Positions 9,690 to 44,807 of a DNA stretch of 45,085 nucleotides are shown here, in pieces. Numbering within the stretch: the stretch's first letter is position 1; each line of letters opens with the position of its first letter. The translations under genes were made by a program, and so were the position numbers. The notes beneath the pieces were generated by a model. That model did not search any database. It was not told where the DNA came from and saw nothing but the letters and a program-made list of their open reading frames with translations. Source of the DNA: an uncultured Rikenellaceae bacterium (GTDB lineage: Bacteria; Bacteroidota; Bacteroidia; Bacteroidales; VadinHA17); assembly GCA_964396955.1 (NCBI GenBank), contig CAYNGW010000001.1:1-45085 (forward strand), in the 5' to 3' direction.

Positions 9690-11237
9690 ATGATGAGAAT
9701 TAAAGTATTACCGGCAATCCTCTTTCTGCTTATTATCTGTAACAGGGCATTTCCGGCTTCCGACACAATAATCATTAAATCGGATATAAACGCTGAGAAA
9801 ATCTCTGCCGACCTCGACAGCCTGGTAAACTGCTGGTATGTCAGGATGGCTCTGCTGAACAATCCGGAAACCTTTTCTGATGATACGGCAGGAGTTCAAT
9901 ACCCTGATTCAGTGTATGAAAACAGGCTGAGCAAAATTAATTCTATAATCAAGCTTAAATATAACAGCATTATCAGGAACCATATCCATGTTTATACAAT
10001 CAAGCAAAGAGATAAATTCAGCATTGTCCTGGGATTAAAGGATTATTATTTCCCGATGATTGAGGATATTTTTGACTCCTACGGATTGCCGGCAGAGCTG
10101 AAATACATGGCAGTGATAGAATCGGCATTGAATCCAAATGCCGTGTCTCCGGCAGGTGCAACGGGACTGTGGCAGTTTATGTACAGTACGGGAAGGTTTT
10201 ATGGTCTTACAATTAATTCAGTAGTGGATGAACGCAGGGACCCTGTCAAATCTACCCATGCGGCAGCAAAATATATAAAAGACCTGTACAATATTTACAA
10301 TGACTGGATCCTTGTGATCGCAGCATATAATTGCGGTCCGGGTAATGTAAATAAGGCGATCCGCAGATCAGGAAATAAGAAAGACTACTGGGAGATATTT
10401 TACAGGCTTCCGAGGGAAACAAGAGGTTATATCCCTCAGTATGTTGCAGCAACTTATGGCATTAATTACTATGCGGAGCATAATATCAGGCCTTTACCAT
10501 TGAATATTCCGAGTGCAACCGATACAATAATGATAAATAAGGATATTCATCTTGCCCAGATATCGGAAGTGATGAAAATACCGTATGGAGAGCTCCGCGC
10601 ACTGAATCCTCAGTACAGGACAGGCCTTGTTCCGGGCTCATCCAAACCGCTTGCACTGACATTACCCATGAGCCATCTTGGTGATTTTATTGATCTGAAT
10701 GATACCATAAGAAGTTATAAACCTGATGTTTATCTGAATAGTGCTACCAGGATCGCAGATCCTTCAAGATCGACTTATGTACCGGCAGATATCAAAGGGA
10801 AAACCAAACTGTTCTATACTGTTAAAGAGGGCGATAATCTGGGATATATCTCAGAATGGTACCATGTGGGATTATCAGAATTGAGGTACTGGAATAATAT
10901 CTACAGGAATACCATTCGTATAGGACAGAAGCTGGCGATGTATGTTGATCCCTCAAAATCGGAATACTTTTCGAAAGTCAATTCAATGTCATTTGCGGAG
11001 AAGCAGCAAATGAATGGAAAAACTGTTCCAGCCAATACATCGGCTGCCAAAAATTCAATACCAACACAAACCGACGGAGATTATATCACATATACGGTGC
11101 GGTCAGGCGATACAATCTGGGATATTGTGAAACTGTTTGACAATGTTACGACCACCGATGTGCTTACTTTAAATAATATCTCCGATCCTGATAAAATTCA
11201 GGTTGGACAGGTACTTAAAATTAAAAAGAAGAGCTGA
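9690..11237 (+). CDS. lytic murein transglycosylase with two C-terminal LysM domains (MltD-like)
   Basis: SLT catalytic region (VIESALNPNAVSPAGATGLWQFM ... AAYNCGPGNV). Two LysM repeats (YTVKEGDNLGYISEWYHVGLSELRYWNNI and YTVRSGDTIWDIVKLF...LNNISDPDKIQVGQVLKI). N-terminal signal peptide. Confidence 0.85.
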   Translation: MMRIKVLPAILFLLIICNRAFPASDTIIIKSDINAEKISADLDSLVNCWYVRMALLNNPETFSDDTAGVQYPDSVYENRLSKINSIIKLKYNSIIRNHIHVYTIKQRDKFSIVLGLKDYYFPMIEDIFDSYGLPAELKYMAVIESALNPNAVSPAGATGLWQFMYSTGRFYGLTINSVVDERRDPVKSTHAAAKYIKDLYNIYNDWILVIAAYNCGPGNVNKAIRRSGNKKDYWEIFYRLPRETRGYIPQYVAATYGINYYAEHNIRPLPLNIPSATDTIMINKDIHLAQISEVMKIPYGELRALNPQYRTGLVPGSSKPLALTLPMSHLGDFIDLNDTIRSYKPDVYLNSATRIADPSRSTYVPADIKGKTKLFYTVKEGDNLGYISEWYHVGLSELRYWNNIYRNTIRIGQKLAMYVDPSKSEYFSKVNSMSFAEKQQMNGKTVPANTSAAKNSIPTQTDGDYITYTVRSGDTIWDIVKLFDNVTTTDVLTLNNISDPDKIQVGQVLKIKKKS

Positions 11238-11251
11238 TCCCTGACTGATAT

Positions 11252-14206
11252 ATGCGCCCTTTCAGGTCGTTCTTATTACTGTTGATCGTTATGGCCTGTC
11301 TTTCAGGCCTGTTTTATATTTTCCCGCACAGCAAACTATTTCCGTCATTAAATGAGTTTATCCCCGAATCACTCGTAAACAAGCTTACGGGTGTCAATGA
11401 AATGCACCAGGAGGCTGTTCTGGAACAGGTTACCAGCCCTTTTGCAGACGAAACTATTGCAGCAGATTCCATACCTGCAGAACCTCCCGATCCACTAGCC
11501 TCCTTCCTTGATTCACTAAAGAGAGGAAAAGGGCAGGTACGTATGATGTATTATGGCGATTCACAGATTGAGGGTGACCGTATTACATTCTATCTGAGGC
11601 AATTATTAAGAGGAGAAAGGGGAGGCAGCGGTCCGGGATTATTCCTCCCGTCAATGCCGGTAATGTATACCAAATCAATCTGGCTTAAATCATCCTCAGC
11701 CTGGGAAAGATATAATTCCATCTCTTACAGGAATGGCAGTCTGACTCATAACAGGCTCGGACCCTTCATGACCATCTGCAGATATTTGCCCGAAGATGTA
11801 ATTTCCCCTGCCCCGGTAAAGGCATTTGTCAGGATACGGCCTTCAGTTTTTGCCGACAGCGCTGTTGCGGAATTTGAAATACTGCGGCTGTTTTACACCA
11901 ATGCACAGGGGGAGGTCAGAATTACCATTAATGCAGATGATAATCAGGTGTTTACAGGTTCCCTGGAAAACGAAACGGGAGTAAATGAGATAAGAACCAG
12001 CCTGAATGGAGCAGATGACATAATGGTTGAATTTGAAGGAGGAACGAGTCCTGATGTATTTGGCATCAGCATTGAAAGCAAAGCAGGCGTAATTATTGAC
12101 AACATACCCAGGAGAGGCAGTGCCGGACTTGAATTTACACTGGTTGACAGGAGAAATCTGGAGGAGTCATTCAGGATGCTTTCACCCGACCTTATTATTC
12201 TTCACTACGGGTTGAACATTGTAAAGAATGTCAGGGAAGATTATTCATATTACAAGCAAGGTCTGTACAGGCAGCTTACCCTGCTTAAAGAGATTGCTCC
12301 CGGAACCCCGCTGCTGGTGATAGGTGTCACCGACATGGCAGCTGTTGAGGGTGACAGTATAGAATCATACGGGAATATTCCTGCAATAATCAATGCACAG
12401 AGAGAAGCGTCTTATGAAGCAGGAGCTGCTTTCTGGGATCCGTATGAAGCTATGGGAGGCCGCTCTTCAATCATTAAATGGGCGGGGAAAAAACCTCCCC
12501 TGGCCCAGACTGATTATGTACATTTTACCTATCCCGGTGCAGATACACTGTCGCAAATGCTTGCGGATGCTATGTTTAAATTCGGTGTTGAGGATACCCT
12601 GGCTTATGTCGAAGGTGCTGATACAATTTTTGTTCAGGATCAATCACCGGACAGCAAACTGGTTGAGGAAGTGAAAGAGACGAGGCTGGCGAAGTCTCTC
12701 CTCATACAGATATTCAGTTATGATGAGAATAAGCCATTCATTTTCACTGCCCCAGCATTCTGGATTTTCTTTATTATTGTGCTGGCAGGATATTGCCTGG
12801 TATACAAAAAACTGTTCCTCAGGCATTTCTATCTGCTGCTTGTAAGTCTTTTCTTCTATTATAAATCGGGAGGGCTATTCCTTTTCCTTCTGGTATTTGT
12901 CACCATAATTGATTATGCCTGCGGATTGCTGATATTTAATTCTAAGAAAAAGCCGGCAAAGAGGTTGTTTATACTTATCAGCATTTTATCAAACCTGGGT
13001 ATCCTGGCATATTTCAAATATACAGGCTTCCTTGTAGATTCAGTAAACGAGGTACTGGGGACCAGTTTCCAGGTTCATGATTTCCTTGCATCATTTTCAA
13101 ACAACCATCTTGGAACTGCTTTTAACATCAGCAGCATTATCCTGCCGGTAGGTATATCCTTTTTTACTTTCCAGTCGCTCAGTTATACTCTGGATGTTTA
13201 CAGGGGAAAGCTGAAGCCTGTAAGGAATATTGCTGACTTTGGATTTTATGTTTCATTTTTTCCGCAGCTTGTGGCTGGTCCGATTGTGAGGGCTTCCGAA
13301 TTTATCCCCCAGTTATACAGGGAATTCAGCCTGTCAAAAAGAGAATTCAGTCATGCATTGTTCCTCGTTTCAAAAGGGCTCATCAAAAAAATAATTATCT
13401 CCGATTTCATCGCGGTCAATTTTATTGACCGTGTTTTTGATCTCCCTTCGATATATTCCGGTTTTGAGAATCTGATGGCAATATACGGTTATGGACTTCA
13501 GATCTACTGTGATTTTTCGGGTTATACTGACATTGCCATCGGTCTGGCATTGATACTTGGTTTCAGGCTTCCTGTCAATTTCAACTCACCTTATAAAGCT
13601 GCAGGTATTAATGATTTCTGGAAACGGTGGCATATTTCTCTTTCGAGATGGCTGAAGGATTATCTGTATATAACGCTCGGAGGGAACAGAAAAGGAAAGA
13701 TCAGGACCGGTATAAACCTGATGATCACCATGTTGCTTGGTGGCTTATGGCACGGAGCCGCATTAAGGTTCGTTATCTGGGGAGGCCTTCATGGTATAGG
13801 GCTGGTAATAAACAGGATATGGAATTCAATTTTTGGCAGCCGCTTGAAACAGGGTCGTTTCGGAAGAGCAATAGCAGTTTTCATAACGTTCAATTTCGTA
13901 AGCTTTTGCTGGATATTTTTCAGGTCACCGGATATGGACAGTGCAATGCTTATGCTCACTCAGATAGCAGAAAATTTCTCCCCCGGATCATATATGACCG
14001 TTATACCGGCTTATGCCAGTGTTTTTCTATTGATGATCACAGGTTATATTATACATTTCCTGCCGGAGAAAGTAAAGGAATCTTACAGAGGATTATTCAT
14101 AAAGATGCCTCTGATCGCCCAGGTTATTGTAATAATGTTTATTGCGGTCCTGTTGTTGCGGATGAGAACAACAGATATCATGCCCTTTATTTATTTCAGG
14201 TTTTAA
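11252..14206 (+). CDS. fusion protein: N-terminal membrane-anchored SGNH/GDSL-like domain plus C-terminal MBOAT O-acyltransferase (AlgI/DltB/PatA-like)
   Basis: One uninterrupted 984-aa ORF. SGNH blocks: MMYYGDSQIEGD (I), NIPRRGSAG (II), ILHYGLNIV (III), TDYVHFT (V), with about 170 aa inserted between blocks I and II. From about residue 495 there are 10+ TM helices with the MBOAT histidine context FWKRWHISLSRWLKDYLYITLGGNR. Confidence 0.8.
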   Translation: MRPFRSFLLLLIVMACLSGLFYIFPHSKLFPSLNEFIPESLVNKLTGVNEMHQEAVLEQVTSPFADETIAADSIPAEPPDPLASFLDSLKRGKGQVRMMYYGDSQIEGDRITFYLRQLLRGERGGSGPGLFLPSMPVMYTKSIWLKSSSAWERYNSISYRNGSLTHNRLGPFMTICRYLPEDVISPAPVKAFVRIRPSVFADSAVAEFEILRLFYTNAQGEVRITINADDNQVFTGSLENETGVNEIRTSLNGADDIMVEFEGGTSPDVFGISIESKAGVIIDNIPRRGSAGLEFTLVDRRNLEESFRMLSPDLIILHYGLNIVKNVREDYSYYKQGLYRQLTLLKEIAPGTPLLVIGVTDMAAVEGDSIESYGNIPAIINAQREASYEAGAAFWDPYEAMGGRSSIIKWAGKKPPLAQTDYVHFTYPGADTLSQMLADAMFKFGVEDTLAYVEGADTIFVQDQSPDSKLVEEVKETRLAKSLLIQIFSYDENKPFIFTAPAFWIFFIIVLAGYCLVYKKLFLRHFYLLLVSLFFYYKSGGLFLFLLVFVTIIDYACGLLIFNSKKKPAKRLFILISILSNLGILAYFKYTGFLVDSVNEVLGTSFQVHDFLASFSNNHLGTAFNISSIILPVGISFFTFQSLSYTLDVYRGKLKPVRNIADFGFYVSFFPQLVAGPIVRASEFIPQLYREFSLSKREFSHALFLVSKGLIKKIIISDFIAVNFIDRVFDLPSIYSGFENLMAIYGYGLQIYCDFSGYTDIAIGLALILGFRLPVNFNSPYKAAGINDFWKRWHISLSRWLKDYLYITLGGNRKGKIRTGINLMITMLLGGLWHGAALRFVIWGGLHGIGLVINRIWNSIFGSRLKQGRFGRAIAVFITFNFVSFCWIFFRSPDMDSAMLMLTQIAENFSPGSYMTVIPAYASVFLLMITGYIIHFLPEKVKESYRGLFIKMPLIAQVIVIMFIAVLLLRMRTTDIMPFIYFRF

Positions 14207-14242: not shown

Positions 14243-15472
14243 TTACAGATAAGTTTCCCTGTTGTTATTATCTGACACAAACAGTGCAATAGCCCTTTTA
14301 TAAATACCCTGAACATAAGCAATAGCCATCCCATAATTGGTTATCGGAATACCTGCCTTCACCGCAGGCTGGAGCCTGTTATGAAGCTGCCTCCTGGTTA
14401 TCATGCATCCGCCGCACTGGATGACAAGAGCATAATCAGTAATTGGCCGCGGTAGAGTATCCAGGCCGGCGACAATATCAAATTCAATCTTCTTTCCTGT
14501 AAAGTTTGTTATCCATCTCGGTATTTTTGTTCTTCCGATATCATCGCAGGCAATATGATGAGTACATGATTCCAGGATAAGCACCCTGTCGCCGTCATTC
14601 AGTTCAGAAATTTTCGGTGTTCCTTTCAGGTAATTATCAAAATCGCCCTTGAACCTGGCGAGCATTATGCTGAAGCTTGTCAGGGGTATTTCCGGTGGGA
14701 TGGAAGCGTCAGCTTTTACAAAAACCTGAGAATCGGTGATTGCCAGGGCAGGCTTTATCCCTGTTTTTTTAAGGAATGCATCAACTTCCCTTTCCTTCAT
14801 TACTATTGCAACTGCATCATTATCAAGAATATCCCGTATAGCCTGTACCTGTGGGAGAATCAATCTACCAGCCGGAGCTTCAACATCGATGGGTGTGATC
14901 AGGATCACTATATCGCCGTAGTTGATCAGATCTCCAAGGAGCGCCGGGGTTTTATACGAATGTTCCGGAATGGTGATCCTGATAAGATTGATAAGATCTT
15001 CAAAATTACGCTTATCGACAACAGAAAACTCAAAAAGCTCTGCCCCGGTCTTCTTTTTCACCTCTTCCCTGAAACGCTTAGTGGGTTCATTTATATCTGA
15101 TTTATTGTGAATTACAATAAAGGGTATATCCTGTTCATGGAATTTAACGATCAGATTATCTTCAAACTTGCCCCAGGAATTCCCGGTAACAACAAGCAAT
15201 GCCAGATCAATTATATCCAGTGTTCTGATTGTCCTTTCAACTCTTTTATGACCAAGATCTCCGGTATCGTCGATACCACCTGTATCCACAAGAACAACAG
15301 GGCCAAATCCGGTTATTTCAAATGATTTTTTAACAGGATCCGTGGTTGTCCCCGGATGATCTGAGATTATTGCAATATCCTGACCTGCAAGGCAGTTTAT
15401 CAGGCTGCTTTTACCATAATTACGGCGGCCATAAATTCCAATATGTGGTTTTGATTCTCTGCCTTTTGACAT
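14243..15472 (-). CDS. hydF: [FeFe]-hydrogenase maturation GTPase HydF-like
   Basis: G-domain motifs (GRRNYGKSSLINCLAG, DTGGIDD, NKSD). C-terminal cluster-binding pattern ESCTHH ... QCGGCM (CxH...CxxC). The start is set at ATG 15472, because the longer ORF-track start would overlap the upstream gene. Confidence 0.8.
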   Translation of the reverse strand: MSKGRESKPHIGIYGRRNYGKSSLINCLAGQDIAIISDHPGTTTDPVKKSFEITGFGPVVLVDTGGIDDTGDLGHKRVERTIRTLDIIDLALLVVTGNSWGKFEDNLIVKFHEQDIPFIVIHNKSDINEPTKRFREEVKKKTGAELFEFSVVDKRNFEDLINLIRITIPEHSYKTPALLGDLINYGDIVILITPIDVEAPAGRLILPQVQAIRDILDNDAVAIVMKEREVDAFLKKTGIKPALAITDSQVFVKADASIPPEIPLTSFSIMLARFKGDFDNYLKGTPKISELNDGDRVLILESCTHHIACDDIGRTKIPRWITNFTGKKIEFDIVAGLDTLPRPITDYALVIQCGGCMITRRQLHNRLQPAVKAGIPITNYGMAIAYVQGIYKRAIALFVSDNNNRETYL

Positions 15473-15485
15473 AGTCTGAGTCTCG

Positions 15486-16931
15486 TTATTTGATTTCCAG
15501 ATCATCAAGGGAGAAGCCCAGCTTAAGAAGGTTCCCGGGTTGAAGGATGAATTTGAGCTTCCGGTCATCAATAAACTTGAGAATTGAGTTTGCTTCCAGA
15601 ATATCAATCTTCTTATCCTTCATAAGTTTTGCAATTTCAGATGCTTTATGGTAACCTATATGCGGAGTCAGAGCAGTGGTTACGGATGGACTGTGCATTA
15701 ATTCATTATAGCCTGCTGTTTCATTGATTTTCAATCCGGTAATCAGGTTGTCCAGCAGTGTCATGTTGCATGATATCAGCAGGTTAATACTCTCAATCAG
15801 TGAACAGCCAATGGCAGGCAGGTATGCATTTAACTCCAGGGCTCCCTGCCCGCTTAATGAACTGATAAGGACATCGTTGGAATATACTTTATGTACAGCT
15901 GAGATCACAAATTCAGGTATTACCGGATTTATTTTCCCGGGCATTATTGAGCTTCCGACCTGTTTTTCCGGTATTGAAATGGTTTTATGGTATGCAATAT
16001 CTGAAGCGAGCAGCCTGAGGTCGCCCGACATCTTTTCAAGGTTAACTGCATGTGCTTTCAGCGTGGAGTGGATCTCTACCCATTTATCAAGGTTTGATGT
16101 TGCATCTGCAAGGTTTTCACTGTGTGATAGCTGCAGACCTGTGATTGAACGCAGCTCAGGAACTATTTCCATTATAAAGAAACGGGGAATGGCTATTCCG
16201 GTACCGATCGCTCCGCCACCCATGTTTATCAGCTTGATTCTTTCAAAACATTTTGACACTCTCCACCAGTCGCGTGAAAGTGCTTCGTTATATGTGCTGA
16301 ACAGAAGTCCGAATGATGAAGGGACTGCCTCCTGAAGTTGTGTATACCCGGGACGAAGCCTATCCCTGTTTTCTCTTTCATGTCCTTCTATTTTCTGCCT
16401 CAGGTCATTGATCGCATTTTCAAGCAATTGCAAAAGTCTCATTACAGCTATTGTAAGAGCTGTAGGGATAACATCATTTGTTGACTGGTATATATTTGCG
16501 TGTTCGGTTGGATCAATATAAGAGTAATTGCCACACTTATTACCTGTTTTCAGCAGAGCAATGTTCGTAATTATCTCATTGATGTTCATATTGATGCTGG
16601 TTCCTGCGCCGCCCTGAACAGCCGGAATTATAAAATGATCAAAGTGCTTTCCCTCTGCTATTTCATTAGCGGCAGAGATCAACACATCGAATATTTTGTT
16701 ATCAATTCTTTTAAAGGGGAGGTTTTCTACTGATTTCTGACTAACAGCCTCGAAGAATCTTTTACAGGTATTATAACAGGCTAGTTTGGTGATACCCACT
16801 GCCCGGTACCATTCTACCGGGAAAAGTGAATTGTCCGGGAAGTTTTCCTTAGCCCGCAGTGCATGGATCCCGTAAAGCGCATCTTCGGGGATCTGCTTTT
16901 CTCCTAATTTATCTTTTTCAGTGCGGTACAC
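15486..16931 (-). CDS. aspartate ammonia-lyase family protein (class II fumarase/aspartase superfamily)
   Basis: Signature GSSIMPGKINP. QSTNDVIPTA. GYTQLQEAVP has Gln where fumarases have His, which is aspartase-like. 481 aa. Confidence 0.8.
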   Translation of the reverse strand: MYRTEKDKLGEKQIPEDALYGIHALRAKENFPDNSLFPVEWYRAVGITKLACYNTCKRFFEAVSQKSVENLPFKRIDNKIFDVLISAANEIAEGKHFDHFIIPAVQGGAGTSINMNINEIITNIALLKTGNKCGNYSYIDPTEHANIYQSTNDVIPTALTIAVMRLLQLLENAINDLRQKIEGHERENRDRLRPGYTQLQEAVPSSFGLLFSTYNEALSRDWWRVSKCFERIKLINMGGGAIGTGIAIPRFFIMEIVPELRSITGLQLSHSENLADATSNLDKWVEIHSTLKAHAVNLEKMSGDLRLLASDIAYHKTISIPEKQVGSSIMPGKINPVIPEFVISAVHKVYSNDVLISSLSGQGALELNAYLPAIGCSLIESINLLISCNMTLLDNLITGLKINETAGYNELMHSPSVTTALTPHIGYHKASEIAKLMKDKKIDILEANSILKFIDDRKLKFILQPGNLLKLGFSLDDLEIK

Positions 16932-16937
16932 AGAGCA

Positions 16938-18113
16938 TTAAATATTGGAACCGGAGACGGGTCTTGCATAAACAACGACATCTGCCCCGGTAATTTCATC
17001 TTTGCAGAGGATAATCATCCTTTCAAGGACATTCCGGAATTCCCTTATGTTGCCTGTCCATACTATCTTCTGCAACTCCTTTAGAGCATCCGGCCTGATG
17101 GTTTTCTTACTCATTCCGTATTCCTTGCAGATTACTGAATTAAAATGGTCTGCAAGGAGCGGGATATCCTCTTCGCGTTCATTGAGGGTAGGAACATGGA
17201 TAAGAATTACGCTCAGACGGTGATACAAGTCTTCCCTGAATCCGTTCTTTTCTATTTCATGCTTGATATTCTTATTGGTGGCAGTAATAATTCTCACGTT
17301 CACCTGGATGTCCTTATCGGAGCCTACTCTTGTTATCCTGTTCTCCTGGAGGGCCCTGAGTACTTTAGCCTGGGCAGACAGGCTCATATCGCCTATCTCA
17401 TCAAGAAAAAGAGTGCCACCGTTTGCCTGTTCGAATTTGCCGATACGCTGTTTTATAGCTGAGGTAAAAGAACCTTTTTCGTGACCAAATAACTCACTCT
17501 CAATAAGTTCTGATGGAATGGCGGCACAATTGACTTCGACGAATGGTCCCTTTGCCCTGCTGCTTTTCTCGTGTATCTGATGTGCCACCAGCTCTTTCCC
17601 TGTTCCGTTTGCACCGGTGATCAGGATTCTTGCCTCGGTAGAAGCAACCCTGTCAATCATCTCCTTAACCCTCATGATAGACTCAGATTCTCCGACTATC
17701 TCATACATTTTGCTGACCTTATTCTTAAGGACCTGTGTCTGGGTAATAAGGGTTGATTTATCCGTGGCATTACGGATGGTGATCAATAGCCTGTTAAGGT
17801 CGAGAGGTTTTTCAAGAAAGTCGTAAGCTCCCTTCTTTATGGCGTCAACGGCTGTATCAATATTCCCATGGCCTGAGATCATAACAACAGGAGTGACTGT
17901 TGACATATCGGTTATCTTCTGGAGAACTTCGATACCATCCATTTTCTGCATTTTAATATCGCACAGGACAATATCATATGTGTTGGAAGAGAAAAGTTCA
18001 ATTCCAGTCGGGCCGTCTTCAGCAAGATCTACCTCATGCTTCTCGTATTCCAGAACTTCCTTAAGGGTGTTCCGGATAGCTTTTTCATCGTCTATAACTA
18101 AGATTTTTGACAT
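16938..18113 (-). CDS. sigma-54-dependent response regulator (receiver + AAA+ activator) lacking a C-terminal DNA-binding domain
   Basis: Receiver domain (ILVIDDE...VLCDIKMQKMDG...EKP). Walker A GANGTGKE, Walker B LFLDEIG, sigma-54 contact loop ELFGHEKGSFTSA, and WTGNIREFRNVLER. The protein ends about 25 aa after that motif (391 aa), so no Fis-type HTH is present. Confidence 0.88.
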   Translation of the reverse strand: MSKILVIDDEKAIRNTLKEVLEYEKHEVDLAEDGPTGIELFSSNTYDIVLCDIKMQKMDGIEVLQKITDMSTVTPVVMISGHGNIDTAVDAIKKGAYDFLEKPLDLNRLLITIRNATDKSTLITQTQVLKNKVSKMYEIVGESESIMRVKEMIDRVASTEARILITGANGTGKELVAHQIHEKSSRAKGPFVEVNCAAIPSELIESELFGHEKGSFTSAIKQRIGKFEQANGGTLFLDEIGDMSLSAQAKVLRALQENRITRVGSDKDIQVNVRIITATNKNIKHEIEKNGFREDLYHRLSVILIHVPTLNEREEDIPLLADHFNSVICKEYGMSKKTIRPDALKELQKIVWTGNIREFRNVLERMIILCKDEITGADVVVYARPVSGSNI

Positions 18114-18143: not shown

Positions 18144-18220
18144 AAGAGGCGACAGGCATCAGGCAACAGGCTACAGGGAATAAACACCTGACGCCTGAAG
18201 CCCGACGCCTGAAGCCTATC
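18144..18220. repeat. two inverted heptad arrays (nnCAGGC x5, a 7-nt spacer, GCCTGnn x5) forming a segmented hairpin
   Basis: aagaggc / gacaggc / atcaggc / aacaggc / tacaggg, spacer aataaac, then acctgac / gcctgaa / gcccgac / gcctgaa / gcctatc. Exactly 11 heptads. The right arm overlaps the stop and last codon of the ABC permease. Confidence 0.85.
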
Positions 18221-19574
18221 CTGAGTATCTCAGCCATTTCCACATTTCTTTGTACGATGTTTTCTTGCCATACATCAGTATCCCGGTTCTGTAGATCTTC
18301 GCCGCCATCCACACACATCCTGCAAATGTTATCACCATGAGGAACATTGAAATTGCTATCTGCCAGTAGGGTACGCCAAAAGGTATCCGAGCCATCATTA
18401 CAATAGGGGAGGTGAAAGGGATTATCGAGAACCATAAGGCAATGGAGCTTTCCGGATTCTGCATGGTTCCCATTGCCACCATGAGAGCGAAGATAATAGG
18501 TATGGCAACAGGCAGCATAAACTGCTGTGTTTCAGTTTCGTTATCTACTGCCGATCCTATCGCCGCAAATATTGAAGCATACAGAAGGTAACCGGTAACA
18601 AAATAGAATATGAATGATAAAATTATCAGGATCCAGTCCTGGTTCATCGCATTATCGAACAATTTTGTAAATTCCGCCATATCAGCGGACATCTCATCTG
18701 TCTGGGTTGCAGTGGCAATTTGCTGTTTTCCATCCATTATGTTCTGGGGCATGGTCTGAGTAATTTCAGTTACCCCCTTATCCTTCAGTACTGTTGCTTT
18801 CACCACCATAACAATTCCTGCAGTAAGAATTATCCAGATAAAGAACTGGGTAAGGCCTACCAGTGCAATGCCAATGATCTTACCCATCATAAGCTGAACA
18901 GGTTTGACCGAGGAGACAATAACCTCGACAACCCTGCTCGTTTTTTCTTCGATAACGCCTCTCATAACCATTGATCCGAACATGAAAACAAGCATGTACA
19001 TAAGGAACCCGCTGATATATGCCAGAGCCATTGCAATGCCTGTGCTGGTTTTTACAGACTGTCCCGAATCGTCGATTTTAATAGTCTGAATTGATACATT
19101 TGTATTGACGTCCTTAAGGATATTATCGAGATCCTTGATATTGTATGCAAGAAGCTTTTGCCTTTCAATTTCCTTTTCGAGCGCGCCGGAAATATGTTCA
19201 AGCAGGGTGAGAGGCGGCTGTTTTTTGGAAATGAGCTGTATCGCATTCGGAGTATTTATTATTTCCGGTGAGATCCACAGAATACCATAATATCCGGCCT
19301 CTTCGAAGTTCGTTTTAAGGTCTTCAACCGATGTGTTTTCCAGGTAGATATAATCAGCATCTTTTGTGTCGGGTATGACATTTTTGAACAGGTCAGAGCC
19401 ATCTTCAATCACAGCGATCTTTTTAAAATCCTTATCTCCATTCAGCATAAGAAGAGTCGGAACAACCATCAGCGAAGCCAGCAGCACGGGTGCAAGTATG
19501 GTCATTATGATAAATGATTTCTTCCTGACCCTGGTCATGTATTCCCTGCTTATTATTACAGATATTTTATTCAT
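18216..19574 (-). CDS. ABC-2 type transporter permease (NatB-like)
   Basis: 452 aa. One N-terminal TM, a ~150-aa extracytoplasmic domain, then 5-6 C-terminal TM helices. Encoded 18 nt downstream of the ABC ATPase. Confidence 0.8.
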   Translation of the reverse strand: MNKISVIISREYMTRVRKKSFIIMTILAPVLLASLMVVPTLLMLNGDKDFKKIAVIEDGSDLFKNVIPDTKDADYIYLENTSVEDLKTNFEEAGYYGILWISPEIINTPNAIQLISKKQPPLTLLEHISGALEKEIERQKLLAYNIKDLDNILKDVNTNVSIQTIKIDDSGQSVKTSTGIAMALAYISGFLMYMLVFMFGSMVMRGVIEEKTSRVVEVIVSSVKPVQLMMGKIIGIALVGLTQFFIWIILTAGIVMVVKATVLKDKGVTEITQTMPQNIMDGKQQIATATQTDEMSADMAEFTKLFDNAMNQDWILIILSFIFYFVTGYLLYASIFAAIGSAVDNETETQQFMLPVAIPIIFALMVAMGTMQNPESSIALWFSIIPFTSPIVMMARIPFGVPYWQIAISMFLMVITFAGCVWMAAKIYRTGILMYGKKTSYKEMWKWLRYSG

Positions 19575-19592
19575 AGTATGGATTTTTCAGGA

Positions 19593-20501
19593 TTAATTAC
19601 GTGATTCAACTACACGGATAAATATTTCATTCATTGACGGAAGAGCAGGGTTGAATGAGATTATCCTGCCTGATTTCATTGCTGTTTTAAGGATATCATT
19701 ATTCGCAATATCCCCGGCAGTTTTTATCCTCATTGTGCTCCTGTTATTTTCAAACTGGTTATTAAGGATCTTAAACTGGCCGTTTCCTTCAAATTTAGCC
19801 TCTCCCTCAAAAACAAGTTCATATTCATTGGCAGCCCATTGCCTGCGGATCTCATCCACGCTTCCCTCAAGGATGGTCTTTGCTTTGTCGATAAGAGTAA
19901 TATTATCACATAATTCCTCAACCGATCCCATATTATGAGTAGAGAAGATTATAGTGGCTCCTCTTTCCCGGAGGAACAGAATTTCATTCTTGATAATATT
20001 GGCATTTACAGGGTCAAATCCCGTGAACGGCTCATCGAAAATGATCAGTTTTGGTTCATGCAGGATAGTGGTCACGAACTGCACTTTCTGCTGCATTCCT
20101 TTTGACAGCTCTTCCACCTTCTTTTCCCACCAGTCAACCATATCAAGTTTTTTGAACCAATATTTCAGTCTTCGTATGGCTTCTGCCTTGGTAAGTCCTT
20201 TTAGCTGGGCAAAATAGATCGCCTGTTCGCCAATTTTCATTTTTTTGTACAAGCCGCGTTCCTCCGGAAGGTAGCCAATGACCAGGACATCCTCCGGAAC
20301 CAGCTTCCGACCGCTCATGTAAAGCTCCCCCGCATCAGGGCCGGTTATCTGGTTAATGATCCTGATCAGCGTTGTTTTACCGGCTCCGTTCGGACCCAGA
20401 AGTCCGTAAATGCATTGTTCAGGCACAGATATGCTGACATTATCCAGTGCCTTGAAACTACCGAACTGTTTGATTATGTTCTTTGCTTCAAATAGTGACA
20501 T
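19593..20501 (-). CDS. ABC transporter ATP-binding protein (NatA-like)
   Basis: Walker A GPNGAGKTT, signature LSKGMQQKV, Walker B LIIFDEP, H-loop STHNM. Confidence 0.92.
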   Translation of the reverse strand: MSLFEAKNIIKQFGSFKALDNVSISVPEQCIYGLLGPNGAGKTTLIRIINQITGPDAGELYMSGRKLVPEDVLVIGYLPEERGLYKKMKIGEQAIYFAQLKGLTKAEAIRRLKYWFKKLDMVDWWEKKVEELSKGMQQKVQFVTTILHEPKLIIFDEPFTGFDPVNANIIKNEILFLRERGATIIFSTHNMGSVEELCDNITLIDKAKTILEGSVDEIRRQWAANEYELVFEGEAKFEGNGQFKILNNQFENNRSTMRIKTAGDIANNDILKTAMKSGRIISFNPALPSMNEIFIRVVESRN

Positions 20502-22446: not shown

Positions 22447-22463
22447 AAGCAAATTGCTTGCCA
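22447..22463 (-). promoter_or_regulatory. sigma-54-type -24/-12 element (TGGCAAG-N4-TTGCT) embedded in a 15-nt palindrome, upstream of grpE
   Basis: The minus strand reads TGGCAAGCAATTTGCTT. This has GG-N10-GC spacing and one mismatch to TGGCACG-N4-TTGCW. It lies about 32 nt upstream of the grpE ATG and overlaps the palindrome CAAGCAA-A-TTGCTTG (22446-22460). Confidence 0.4.
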
Positions 22464-44791: not shown

Positions 44792-44807
44792 TGGCACGCT
44801 GTTTGCA
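44792..44807 (+). promoter_or_regulatory. sigma-54 (RpoN) promoter, perfect -24/-12 consensus
   Basis: TGGCACGCTGTTTGCA matches TGGCACG-N4-TTGCW with no mismatch. It is intergenic, after a terminator, and 52 nt upstream of the ATG at 44860. Confidence 0.7.

Follow-up and report, generated by a model that had tools for sequence, protein, structure and literature searches.

The window (the whole 45,085-nt stretch of DNA that was analysed) probably carries, at odds that we put at roughly 0.7, a two-gene [FeFe]-hydrogenase maturation cassette. The cassette would consist of an aspartase-like ammonia-lyase and hydF, with the lyase as ammonium donor for the dithiomethylamine (DTMA) ligand; it lies behind a housekeeping string, and hydG and hydE would be located elsewhere in the genome. 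The features of the locus are as follows.

9690..14206, plus strand: convergent flank, an SLT/LysM transglycosylase and a 984-aa MBOAT protein (Pfam)
14243..15472, minus strand: hydF, H-cluster maturation GTPase/scaffold of [FeFe]-hydrogenase, 409 aa, ATG start at 15472
15473..15485, minus strand: spacer between lyase and hydF, 13 nt
15486..16931, minus strand: hyd-associated aspartase-like ammonia-lyase, 481 aa, GTG start
16932..16937, minus strand: spacer between response regulator and lyase, 6 nt
16938..18113, minus strand: sigma-54-dependent response regulator (RR), 391 aa, REC and AAA+ domains (Pfam and NCBIfam)
18216..20501, minus strand: ABC-2 permease and ABC ATPase (Pfam, synteny)

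The open reading frame coordinates bore out the initial annotation of three same-strand genes with gaps of 6 and 13 nt, all on the minus strand; RR, lyase and hydF may form one transcription unit. The genes dnaJ and grpE lie upstream of the ABC genes, the conserved string terminates in the RR, and the transglycosylase and MBOAT genes form the second edge of the cassette site.

In the proposed pathway, the lyase would most likely deaminate aspartate to fumarate and ammonium. The ammonium would then be passed to the glycine-cleavage T- and H-proteins, giving aminomethyl-lipoyl-H-protein. HydF would draw on this intermediate for the CH2-NH-CH2 bridge in the 2Fe subcluster's dithiomethylamine ligand. 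Both gcvH and gcvT are present in the assembly. The two cassette genes are predicted to be co-transcribed and, being located at the 3' end of the series grpE-dnaJ-ABC ATPase-ABC permease-sigma-54 RR, are probably transcribed in part by read-through from that string. By comparison with the congeners, hydG and hydE would be expected at a second locus.

An aspartate ammonia-lyase in a hyd operon was reportedly noted as early as 2012 in Pelobacter carbinolicus and in 2016 in Sulfurospirillum cavolei. A later paper reported the association of aspA with hydF and its part in azadithiolate nitrogen supply, drawing on both 15N experiments and statistics of genome context (Pagnier et al. 2024, JBC 300:107760). 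AspA together with 15N-aspartate delivers the DTMA bridgehead nitrogen in a defined maturation system (PMC11736057), and the AspA route is now within the pathway scheme of the field (PMC12501116). The link to the azadithiolate nitrogen that had been suggested for the window lyase therefore agrees with published work, while the accompanying remark that no role was established for such lyases is out of date (PMC11736057). Where the H-cluster obtains its bridgehead nitrogen had long been in question and was largely settled in 2022-2024; the locus is an added example, from an uncultured member of the Bacteroidales, of the published lyase-hydF pairing and by itself opens no new question.

As in the hyd-operon aspA class of Pagnier et al. 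2024, an aspartase-family gene stands immediately upstream of hydF and the same ammonium-donor role is proposed; the lyase clade of the window also occurs inside hydG-lyase-hydF-hydE clusters in other Bacteroidales and other phyla. In contrast to that class, the window pair is detached from hydG and hydE and placed behind an unrelated sigma-54 regulator. Pagnier et al. and the earlier papers draw no line between hyd-linked lyases and housekeeping AspA; in the present analysis the former make up a clade of their own, in which the Bacteroidota branch has diverged strongly. The published picture is thus sharpened in three respects: the hyd-linked lyase and housekeeping AspA belong to separate clades, the presence of the former goes with the maturases and not with the hydrogenases, and it is an accessory gene that about half of the sampled HydF-bearing Bacteroidales lack. 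The published maturation experiment used the E. coli housekeeping AspA and not a hyd-linked paralog (Pagnier et al. 2024); the three properties make a native hyd-linked lyase worth testing in place of that enzyme.

The putative HydF-like GTPase proved on profile scanning to be an authentic HydF. It matched TIGR03918 over its full length (model positions 6-391 of 392) with 498.5 bits, over the cut-off of 325.55, contains the MMR_HSR1, HydF_dimer and HydF_tetramer domains of Pfam, and aligned full-length to the solved structures 3qq5 and 5lad with E values of about 1e-106. The cluster cysteines (CTH...CGGC) are retained in alignment with both structures, and the GTPase motifs GRRNYGKSS, DTGG and NKSD are present. 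The three-domain architecture, the GTPase motifs and the three cluster cysteines are common to the HydF proteins of Thermotoga neapolitana, T. maritima and Thermosipho melanesiensis (3QQ5, 5LAD, 5KH0), but the window protein has Gln where these have His preceding CGGC. The open reading frame list gave a longer version of HydF, starting from a TTG at 15607 and overlapping the lyase.

The lyase contains the Lyase_1 and FumaraseC_C domains of Pfam and the motifs TQLQ and GSSIMPGKINP. It scored closest to the aspartase models, yet reached none of the cut-offs set for them (PRK12273, 435.7 vs 510; TIGR00839, 371.4 vs 681.2), and its best solved relatives are the aspartases 1j3u (2.2e-86) and 1jsw (3e-81). 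When it was aligned to these structures, AspB residues T101, S140-T141-N142, T187 and, in the SS loop, S318, S319, M321, K324 and N326 were all found to be kept; H188 of AspB is replaced by Gln, the same residue as in E. coli AspA. The aspartase motifs GGAGTS, QSTND, TQ(L/M)Q and GSSIMPGK(I/V)NP are kept in the window protein and clade-wide. The lyase thus has the fold family, the active-site Thr, Ser and Asn residues and the SS loop of the housekeeping enzymes (E. coli, 1JSW; Bacillus sp. YM55-1, 1J3U), and the hyd-linked paralog is predicted to have aspartase activity.

It differs from those enzymes, in addition to scoring below the equivalog cut-offs, in its phylogenetic position. A phylogeny, one of the checks called for by the initial annotation, placed it in a clade of hyd-linked lyases (SH-aLRT support 100%), apart from the clade of E. 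coli and Bacteroidales housekeeping AspA. A search across the assembly found no second aspartase in the genome itself. The Bacteroidota subclade has a long stem (0.99 substitutions per site), a lineage-specific insertion of 14-17 aa after the KxACY segment and 19 clade-specific replacements at residues conserved in other aspartases. Invariant residues are among those replaced, for example GRTQLQD by G(Y/F)TQ(M/L)Q(E/A/Q) and K186 by Arg (E. coli numbering). Because of the stem, the insertion and these replacements, the properties of the Bacteroidota lyases may differ from those of AspA.

The adjacency of lyase and hydF is not confined to this genome; it recurs across Bacteroidales, Marinilabiliales and at least 5 other phyla. 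Among relatives, the lyase directly precedes hydF at 15/30 HydF loci, and hydF was found within the flank of 31 of the 43 Bacteroidota-clade lyase loci that had enough flanking sequence. The gap, with hydF downstream on the same strand, was 120 nt or less in 24/37 related loci. Adjacency was also found in Cloacimonadota, Firestonebacteria, Vulcanibacillus and Desulfotomaculum; the gene order is lyase-hydG-hydF-hydE in Thermodesulfobacterium, and one-cluster hydG-lyase-hydF-hydE arrangements occur in other Bacteroidales (G031 and the Saccharicrinis locus L052). Cultured carriers of a lyase ortholog include Labilibaculum filiforme, Carboxylicivirga linearis and Saccharicrinis. No conserved third gene was found between lyase and hydF in the relatives bearing inserts. 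The inserts were heterogeneous and, judged from N-terminal sequence only, encode AraC/TPR-like, glycosyltransferase-like and other products. Over 38 loci, the more similar the lyase is to that of the window, the more similar HydF tends to be to the window HydF (Spearman 0.83 between the two identities).

Co-occurrence was counted over 250 genomes of Bacteroidales with a completeness of 90% or more; since these genomes are related, the counts are not independent. In this sample, HydF was present in 78/80 lyase-bearing genomes and the lyase in 2/86 genomes lacking HydF; the two genes, as read from coordinates, are directly adjacent in about 44 of the 78 co-occurring genomes of the order. Within the genus, the lyase tracks the maturases and not the hydrogenases: five congeners (G004, G011, G015, G017 and G019) lack HydE, HydF, HydG and the lyase and each retains 4-6 HydA-type genes. 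The lyase is missing from 86/164 HydF-bearing genomes of the same sample, or about half, and from one congener that has HydE, HydF and HydG (G001), and is therefore dispensable. Frame breaks, possibly assembly errors, interrupt the lyase gene in two other congeners (G007 and G018). Anaerobic habitats usually offer ample free ammonium, so it is not obvious why a dedicated ammonium donor would be needed.

The possibility was considered that the lyase has been neofunctionalised for a hyd-specific task such as channelling ammonia to a T-protein/HydF complex, acting on another amino-dicarboxylate or gating the monovalent-cation-dependent GTPase of HydF. The strongly supported separate clade, the very long Bacteroidota stem, the insertion with the 19 replacements and the scores below every curated AspA cut-off would fit such a change, as would the stimulation of the HydF GTPase by NH4+ (cited in PMC11736057). 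In addition, most congeners have no other aspartase, and four of those without maturases (G004, G011, G015 and G017) lack aspartases altogether, so the lyase seems unnecessary for aspartate catabolism in general. However, every known aspartate-binding and catalytic residue of AspB and AspA is conserved, contact with HydF is hypothetical, and simple ammonium supply fully accounts for the adjacency. Neofunctionalisation is therefore considered unlikely. A related proposal, also given a low probability, is that the hyd-linked lyases are not interchangeable with the housekeeping aspartase but are dedicated maturation factors that would either deliver nitrogen to the T-protein/H-protein/HydF step through direct interaction or employ a modified substrate or modified regulation. 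If this were true, especially of the diverged Bacteroidota branch, the lyases would constitute a fourth, accessory Hyd maturase.

The locus had initially been described as holding an "orphan" hydF. The absence of hydA, hydE and hydG from the 45-kb window was confirmed. In the assembly as a whole (300 contigs, 2.23 Mb, 83.9% complete), an M3-type HydA is present, with HydA located on contig C90, but HydE and HydG were not found. This negative result would agree with a true orphan, in which hydE and hydG have been lost and HydF and the lyase serve another function or are decaying, and the same pattern of HydF and lyase alone was seen in two congeners, G003 (10 contigs, 86% complete) and G020. 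On the other hand, the assembly is incomplete and has only 2.2 Mb, whereas congener genomes span 2.2-5.3 Mb and mostly measure 3-5 Mb; congeners have a second locus that carries both hydG and hydE (in G001 at 192-198 kb of contig C1); and in each of the 16 congeners that reach 90% completeness, HydE, HydF and HydG are either present as a full set or all missing, the discordant genomes being without exception less than 87% complete. Moreover, lyase and hydF are both intact and conserved. Genuine loss is thus improbable, and the orphan state is most likely an assembly gap, hydG and hydE being missing because the metagenome-assembled genome is incomplete; both genes probably exist in its unassembled part. 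The literature was also searched for Bacteroidales genomes that have [FeFe]-hydrogenases but no maturases, and nothing relevant was returned.

A metabolic rather than biosynthetic link, with aspartate fermentation or fumarate supply coupled to H2 production, has a precedent in Pelobacter carbinolicus, where an aspartase lies between hydG and hydF and was proposed, in the genome paper, to match the consumption of aspartate to the release of electrons as H2 (PMC3543383); fumarate can serve as an anaerobic electron acceptor (Pagnier et al. 2024). However, the lyase follows the maturases, it is absent from the congeners that are rich in HydA and lack the maturases, and the adjacency is specific to hydF, so that this reading is very unlikely.

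The least probable reading by our estimate, that the RR is functionally tied to the cassette in a three-gene regulatory operon through which hydrogenase maturation would respond to nitrogen or to another signal, is largely refuted by synteny. Such a tie would be in keeping with the 6-nt gap in the window and gaps of 5-12 nt at four other loci (L034, L038, L039 and L055), with the RR-to-lyase adjacency in 24 Bacteroidales/Marinilabiliales loci and with the presence of rpoN in the assembly. Nevertheless, the RR ortholog is a single-copy core gene with 63-90% identity in 36/40 relatives whatever their hyd content, including all five maturase-less congeners and two HydA-less genomes (G033 and G038). 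In the maturase-less congeners the series grpE-dnaJ-ABC-RR stands beside the same convergent genes and the lyase-hydF pair alone is absent; in four of them (G004, G011, G015 and G019) the transglycosylase/MBOAT flank genes are the immediate neighbours of the RR. Genomes of other families (G031, G034 and G036) have the RR on one contig and the lyase-hydF pair on another. The gap between RR and lyase ranged from 5 to 433 nt among 20 relatives, comparison of these spacers revealed no conserved element, and one holds an unrelated inserted gene. A scan of the window for sigma-54 promoters (TGGCAC-N5-TTGCW, at most 2 mismatches) gave 22 matches vs 21.6 expected, a chance level, and no -24/-12 match upstream of lyase or hydF. 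The sigma-54 link of the initial annotation accordingly did not hold: the RR is a backbone gene and a conserved bystander outside the hyd module.

The RR itself also argues against regulation of the cassette, since it has no DNA-binding domain. Response_reg, Sigma54_activat and AAA_lid_14 were identified by Pfam, whereas profile scans gave no match to HTH_8 and, past the AAA lid, the sequence stops at residue 391; of the REC, sigma-54 AAA+ and C-terminal HTH domains that define the NtrC type, the HTH is thus absent. NtrC-family bacterial enhancer-binding proteins without a DNA-binding domain exist, and the RR resembles these FlgR/CtcC-like proteins in combining REC and sigma-54 AAA+ domains with no HTH. 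Its contact loop reads GSFTSA, in contrast to the GAFTGA of NtrC-family proteins.

The lyase-hydF pair of the window is a real feature, an uncultured-Bacteroidales case of the known hyd-associated pairing of an aspartase with hydF. The window, contig C1, belongs to a 300-contig, 2.23-Mb MAG that is 83.9% complete; the closest public loci to the window are in uncultured Bacteroidales MAGs, some labelled Rikenellaceae. ORF coordinates confirmed the three same-strand genes of the initial annotation, separated by 6 nt (regulator to lyase) and 13 nt (lyase to hydF):

18113-16938, minus strand: sigma-54 response regulator (RR), 391 aa
16931-15486, minus strand: aspartase-like lyase, 481 aa, GTG start
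15472-14243, minus strand: GTPase HydF, 409 aa

The GTPase, at first called HydF-like pending a profile search, matched TIGR03918 with 498.5 bits, above the cut-off of 325.55. Both the dimerisation and tetramerisation domains were found, and the protein aligned over its full length with the solved HydF structures 3qq5 and 5lad (E about 1e-106), with the three cluster cysteines retained. The lyase is closest to aspartase models of NCBIfam and Pfam, yet falls under every curated cut-off (435.7 against 510 for PRK12273; 371.4 against 681.2 for TIGR00839). Its aspartase-like character was borne out by its top solved relatives, the aspartases AspB (1j3u, 2.2e-86) and E. coli AspA (1jsw, 3e-81), with fumarases lower. 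Every known aspartate-binding or catalytic residue is retained (AspB T101, S140/T141/N142, T187 and the SS loop GSSIMPGKxNP), and the position of AspB H188 is occupied by Q, as it is in E. coli AspA.

An 89-sequence maximum likelihood tree with FumC as root was built by a quick IQ-TREE search, SH-aLRT being the only measure of branch support. The aspartase group formed three clades: a housekeeping clade containing E. coli AspA and separate paralogs from the Bacteroidales relatives (support 96), a Clostridia clade without hyd neighbours (support 99), and a 64-member clade containing all of the hyd-linked lyases (support 100). Within the last, the Bacteroidota lyases branch off on a stem 0.99 substitutions per site long, have in common an insertion of 14-17 aa behind KxACY, and have replaced 19 positions conserved in other aspartases, for example GRTQLQD by G(Y/F)TQ(M/L)Q(E/A/Q). 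That the hyd-linked lyases are a clade of their own, with a strongly diverged Bacteroidota branch, is a modest new element. The lyase does not cluster with housekeeping AspA, and no second aspartase was found in the organism's own assembly.

The possibility that the adjacency is a one-genome oddity was refuted. The lyase lies directly upstream of hydF in 15 of 30 HydF loci of relatives. A lyase-based query retrieved 80 loci; a same-strand hydF follows the lyase in 37 of them, no more than 120 nt away in 24. Where the downstream flank of a Bacteroidota-clade lyase locus reached 2.5 kb or more, it contained hydF in 31 of 43 cases. Further afield, the pair was seen in Cloacimonadota, Firestonebacteria, Vulcanibacillus and Desulfotomaculum copahuensis. 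Bacteroidales of other families have the lyase inside classical hyd clusters, hydG-lyase-hydF-hydE in genome G031 and Saccharicrinis, and lyase-hydF-hydE with hydG close by in genome G034. The order is lyase-hydG-hydF-hydE in Thermodesulfobacterium and hydA...hydG-lyase in a Kiritimatiellia locus.

Co-occurrence was evaluated in a sample of 250 genomes from the order with a completeness of 90% or more, E <= 1e-120 defining a lyase ortholog. HydF was present in 164 genomes and the lyase in 80; 78 of these 80 carry HydF (all but G060 and G101), and of the 86 genomes without HydF just 2 have the lyase, although the sampled genomes, which span many families, are related and the counts overstate independence. 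By coordinate reading, the genes are directly adjacent in about 44 of the 78 co-occurring genomes and within 6 kb in 5 more. Identities of lyase and HydF to the window proteins co-vary (Spearman 0.83, 38 loci). Furthermore, HydE, HydF, HydG and the lyase are all missing together from G004, G011, G015, G017 and G019, of the same genus, a joint absence despite the two separate loci (hydG/hydE and lyase/hydF) in congeners. Since these genomes keep 4-6 HydA-type genes, the lyase follows the maturases rather than the hydrogenases; this tracking, and the accessory nature of the hyd-linked lyases, is likewise modestly new.

The proposal that the lyase supplies nitrogen to the azadithiolate (DTMA) ligand is right in substance, but it is already in print. 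An aspartase was described between hydG and hydF in Pelobacter carbinolicus (2012; PMC3543383) and inside a hyd cluster of Sulfurospirillum cavolei (2016; PMC4794192). Pagnier et al. 2024 reported that, of the hydF genes that have other hyd genes as neighbours, 79% have an ammonia-lyase gene at most 20 ORFs away, with aspA nearly always immediately near hydF (PMC11736057). In their defined maturation system, 15N entered the DTMA bridgehead from 15N-aspartate with AspA, or likewise from 15N-serine with SdaA, by way of ammonium and then the glycine-cleavage T/H proteins (PMC11736057). The AspA used was that of E. coli rather than a hyd-linked lyase. AspA is also part of the pathway scheme of a 2025 PNAS paper (PMC12501116). 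In the searchable parts of these papers, a separation of hyd-linked lyases from housekeeping AspA was not found. Both gcvH and gcvT are in the window organism's assembly, so the proposed ammonium/T/H-protein route is available.

The "orphan" reading of hydF is not supported. HydE and HydG were not found in the 83.9%-complete MAG, and this is probably explained by its incompleteness. Among the 16 congeners at least 90% complete, HydE, HydF and HydG are all present or all absent in every one, hydE of one of them (G006, C33) being in two pieces with a stop between. The discordant genomes are all less than 87% complete: G000, G003 and G020 have only HydF and the lyase, and G002 and G022 only HydE and HydG. 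True loss of hydE and hydG is the less likely alternative; in its favour, G003 has just 10 contigs. The lyase is broken by frame breaks in G007 (C77) and G018 (C1), and decay and assembly error are the two explanations for these breaks, as for the split hydE. In G001, which has HydE/F/G, the lyase is missing and hydF has an AraC-like gene upstream. Congeners carry hydG and hydE together at one locus (L211, L212), with a small TM1266-like gene behind hydG; this locus is likely the true regulatory setting of the hyd system. Close to the two genes there (G001:C1 188-201 kb; G024:C3) are a Rex-like repressor, another response regulator and a number of HydA-type genes.

A sigma-54 regulatory link is not supported either. 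The RR has receiver, sigma-54 AAA+ and AAA lid domains, and NCBIfam and Pfam scans detected no DNA-binding domain; its contact loop (window 16938-18113, minus) reads GSFTSA, not GAFTGA. Single-copy orthologs (63-90% identity) occur in 36 of 40 relatives and are conserved across the order, including in maturase-less congeners and the HydA-free G033 and G038. In G004, G011, G015 and G019, grpE-dnaJ-ABC ATPase-ABC permease-RR directly abuts the convergent MBOAT and SLT/LysM genes, exactly the window backbone minus the lyase-hydF pair; in G031, G034 and G036, the RR is on another contig than the pair. In relatives, the RR and the lyase are 5 to 433 nt apart; some of these spacers hold palindromic repeats or an inserted gene, and no conserved sequence was found in them. 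Matches to sigma-54-type -24/-12 promoters were at chance level across the window, with none before the lyase or hydF. The RR is thus a backbone gene with the cassette lying behind it. Given the short gap in the window, read-through from the RR into the cassette is plausible there.

Several other elements were noted. The ABC permease-RR spacer (window 18144-18215, minus) is full of short palindromic repeats with CAGGC/GCCTG heptads, and the RR-lyase spacers of loci L036 and L041 contain palindromic repeat arrays, with CACAGAG/CTCTGTG units in relatives. Upstream of grpE (window 22448-22463, minus) there is a sigma-54-like element, TGGCAAGCAATTTGCT. TGGCA-N6-TTTG was found at this position in 19 of 20 related loci examined, preceded in most by a TGTCAA-N2-TGTCAA-like repeat; roughly half of the loci have TTTGT or TTTGA at the -12 GC, which weakens the sigma-54 reading. 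The sole zero-mismatch match in the 45 kb, the perfect sigma-54 consensus TGGCACGCTGTTTGCA, is near the window end (44792-44807, plus).

The only HydA found in the assembly (contig C90, L003, 832-2613) is a 593-aa, M3-type protein with 2Fe-2S, 4Fe-4S, H-domain and small-subunit domains. It and its 87-89% identical congener orthologs have the L1 H-cluster motif TSCSPGW instead of the canonical TSCCPxW, which a paralog type in congeners has. G004 (100% complete, 5 contigs), G011, G015, G017 and G019 have no HydE/F/G or lyase, yet each has 4-6 Fe_hyd_lg_C genes, such as C4:809227-810138 and C4:990140-991012 of G004 (L230, L231). [FeFe]-hydrogenase genes in near-complete bacterial genomes that have no known maturase are reminiscent of the Giardia/Entamoeba puzzle. 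The HydA genes of about 593 aa extracted from G004 (both types), G011 and G015 (one each, TSCSPGW type) are intact, and one of G004 has canonical TSCCPGW, MPCxxKxxE and ExMxCxxGCxxG motifs.
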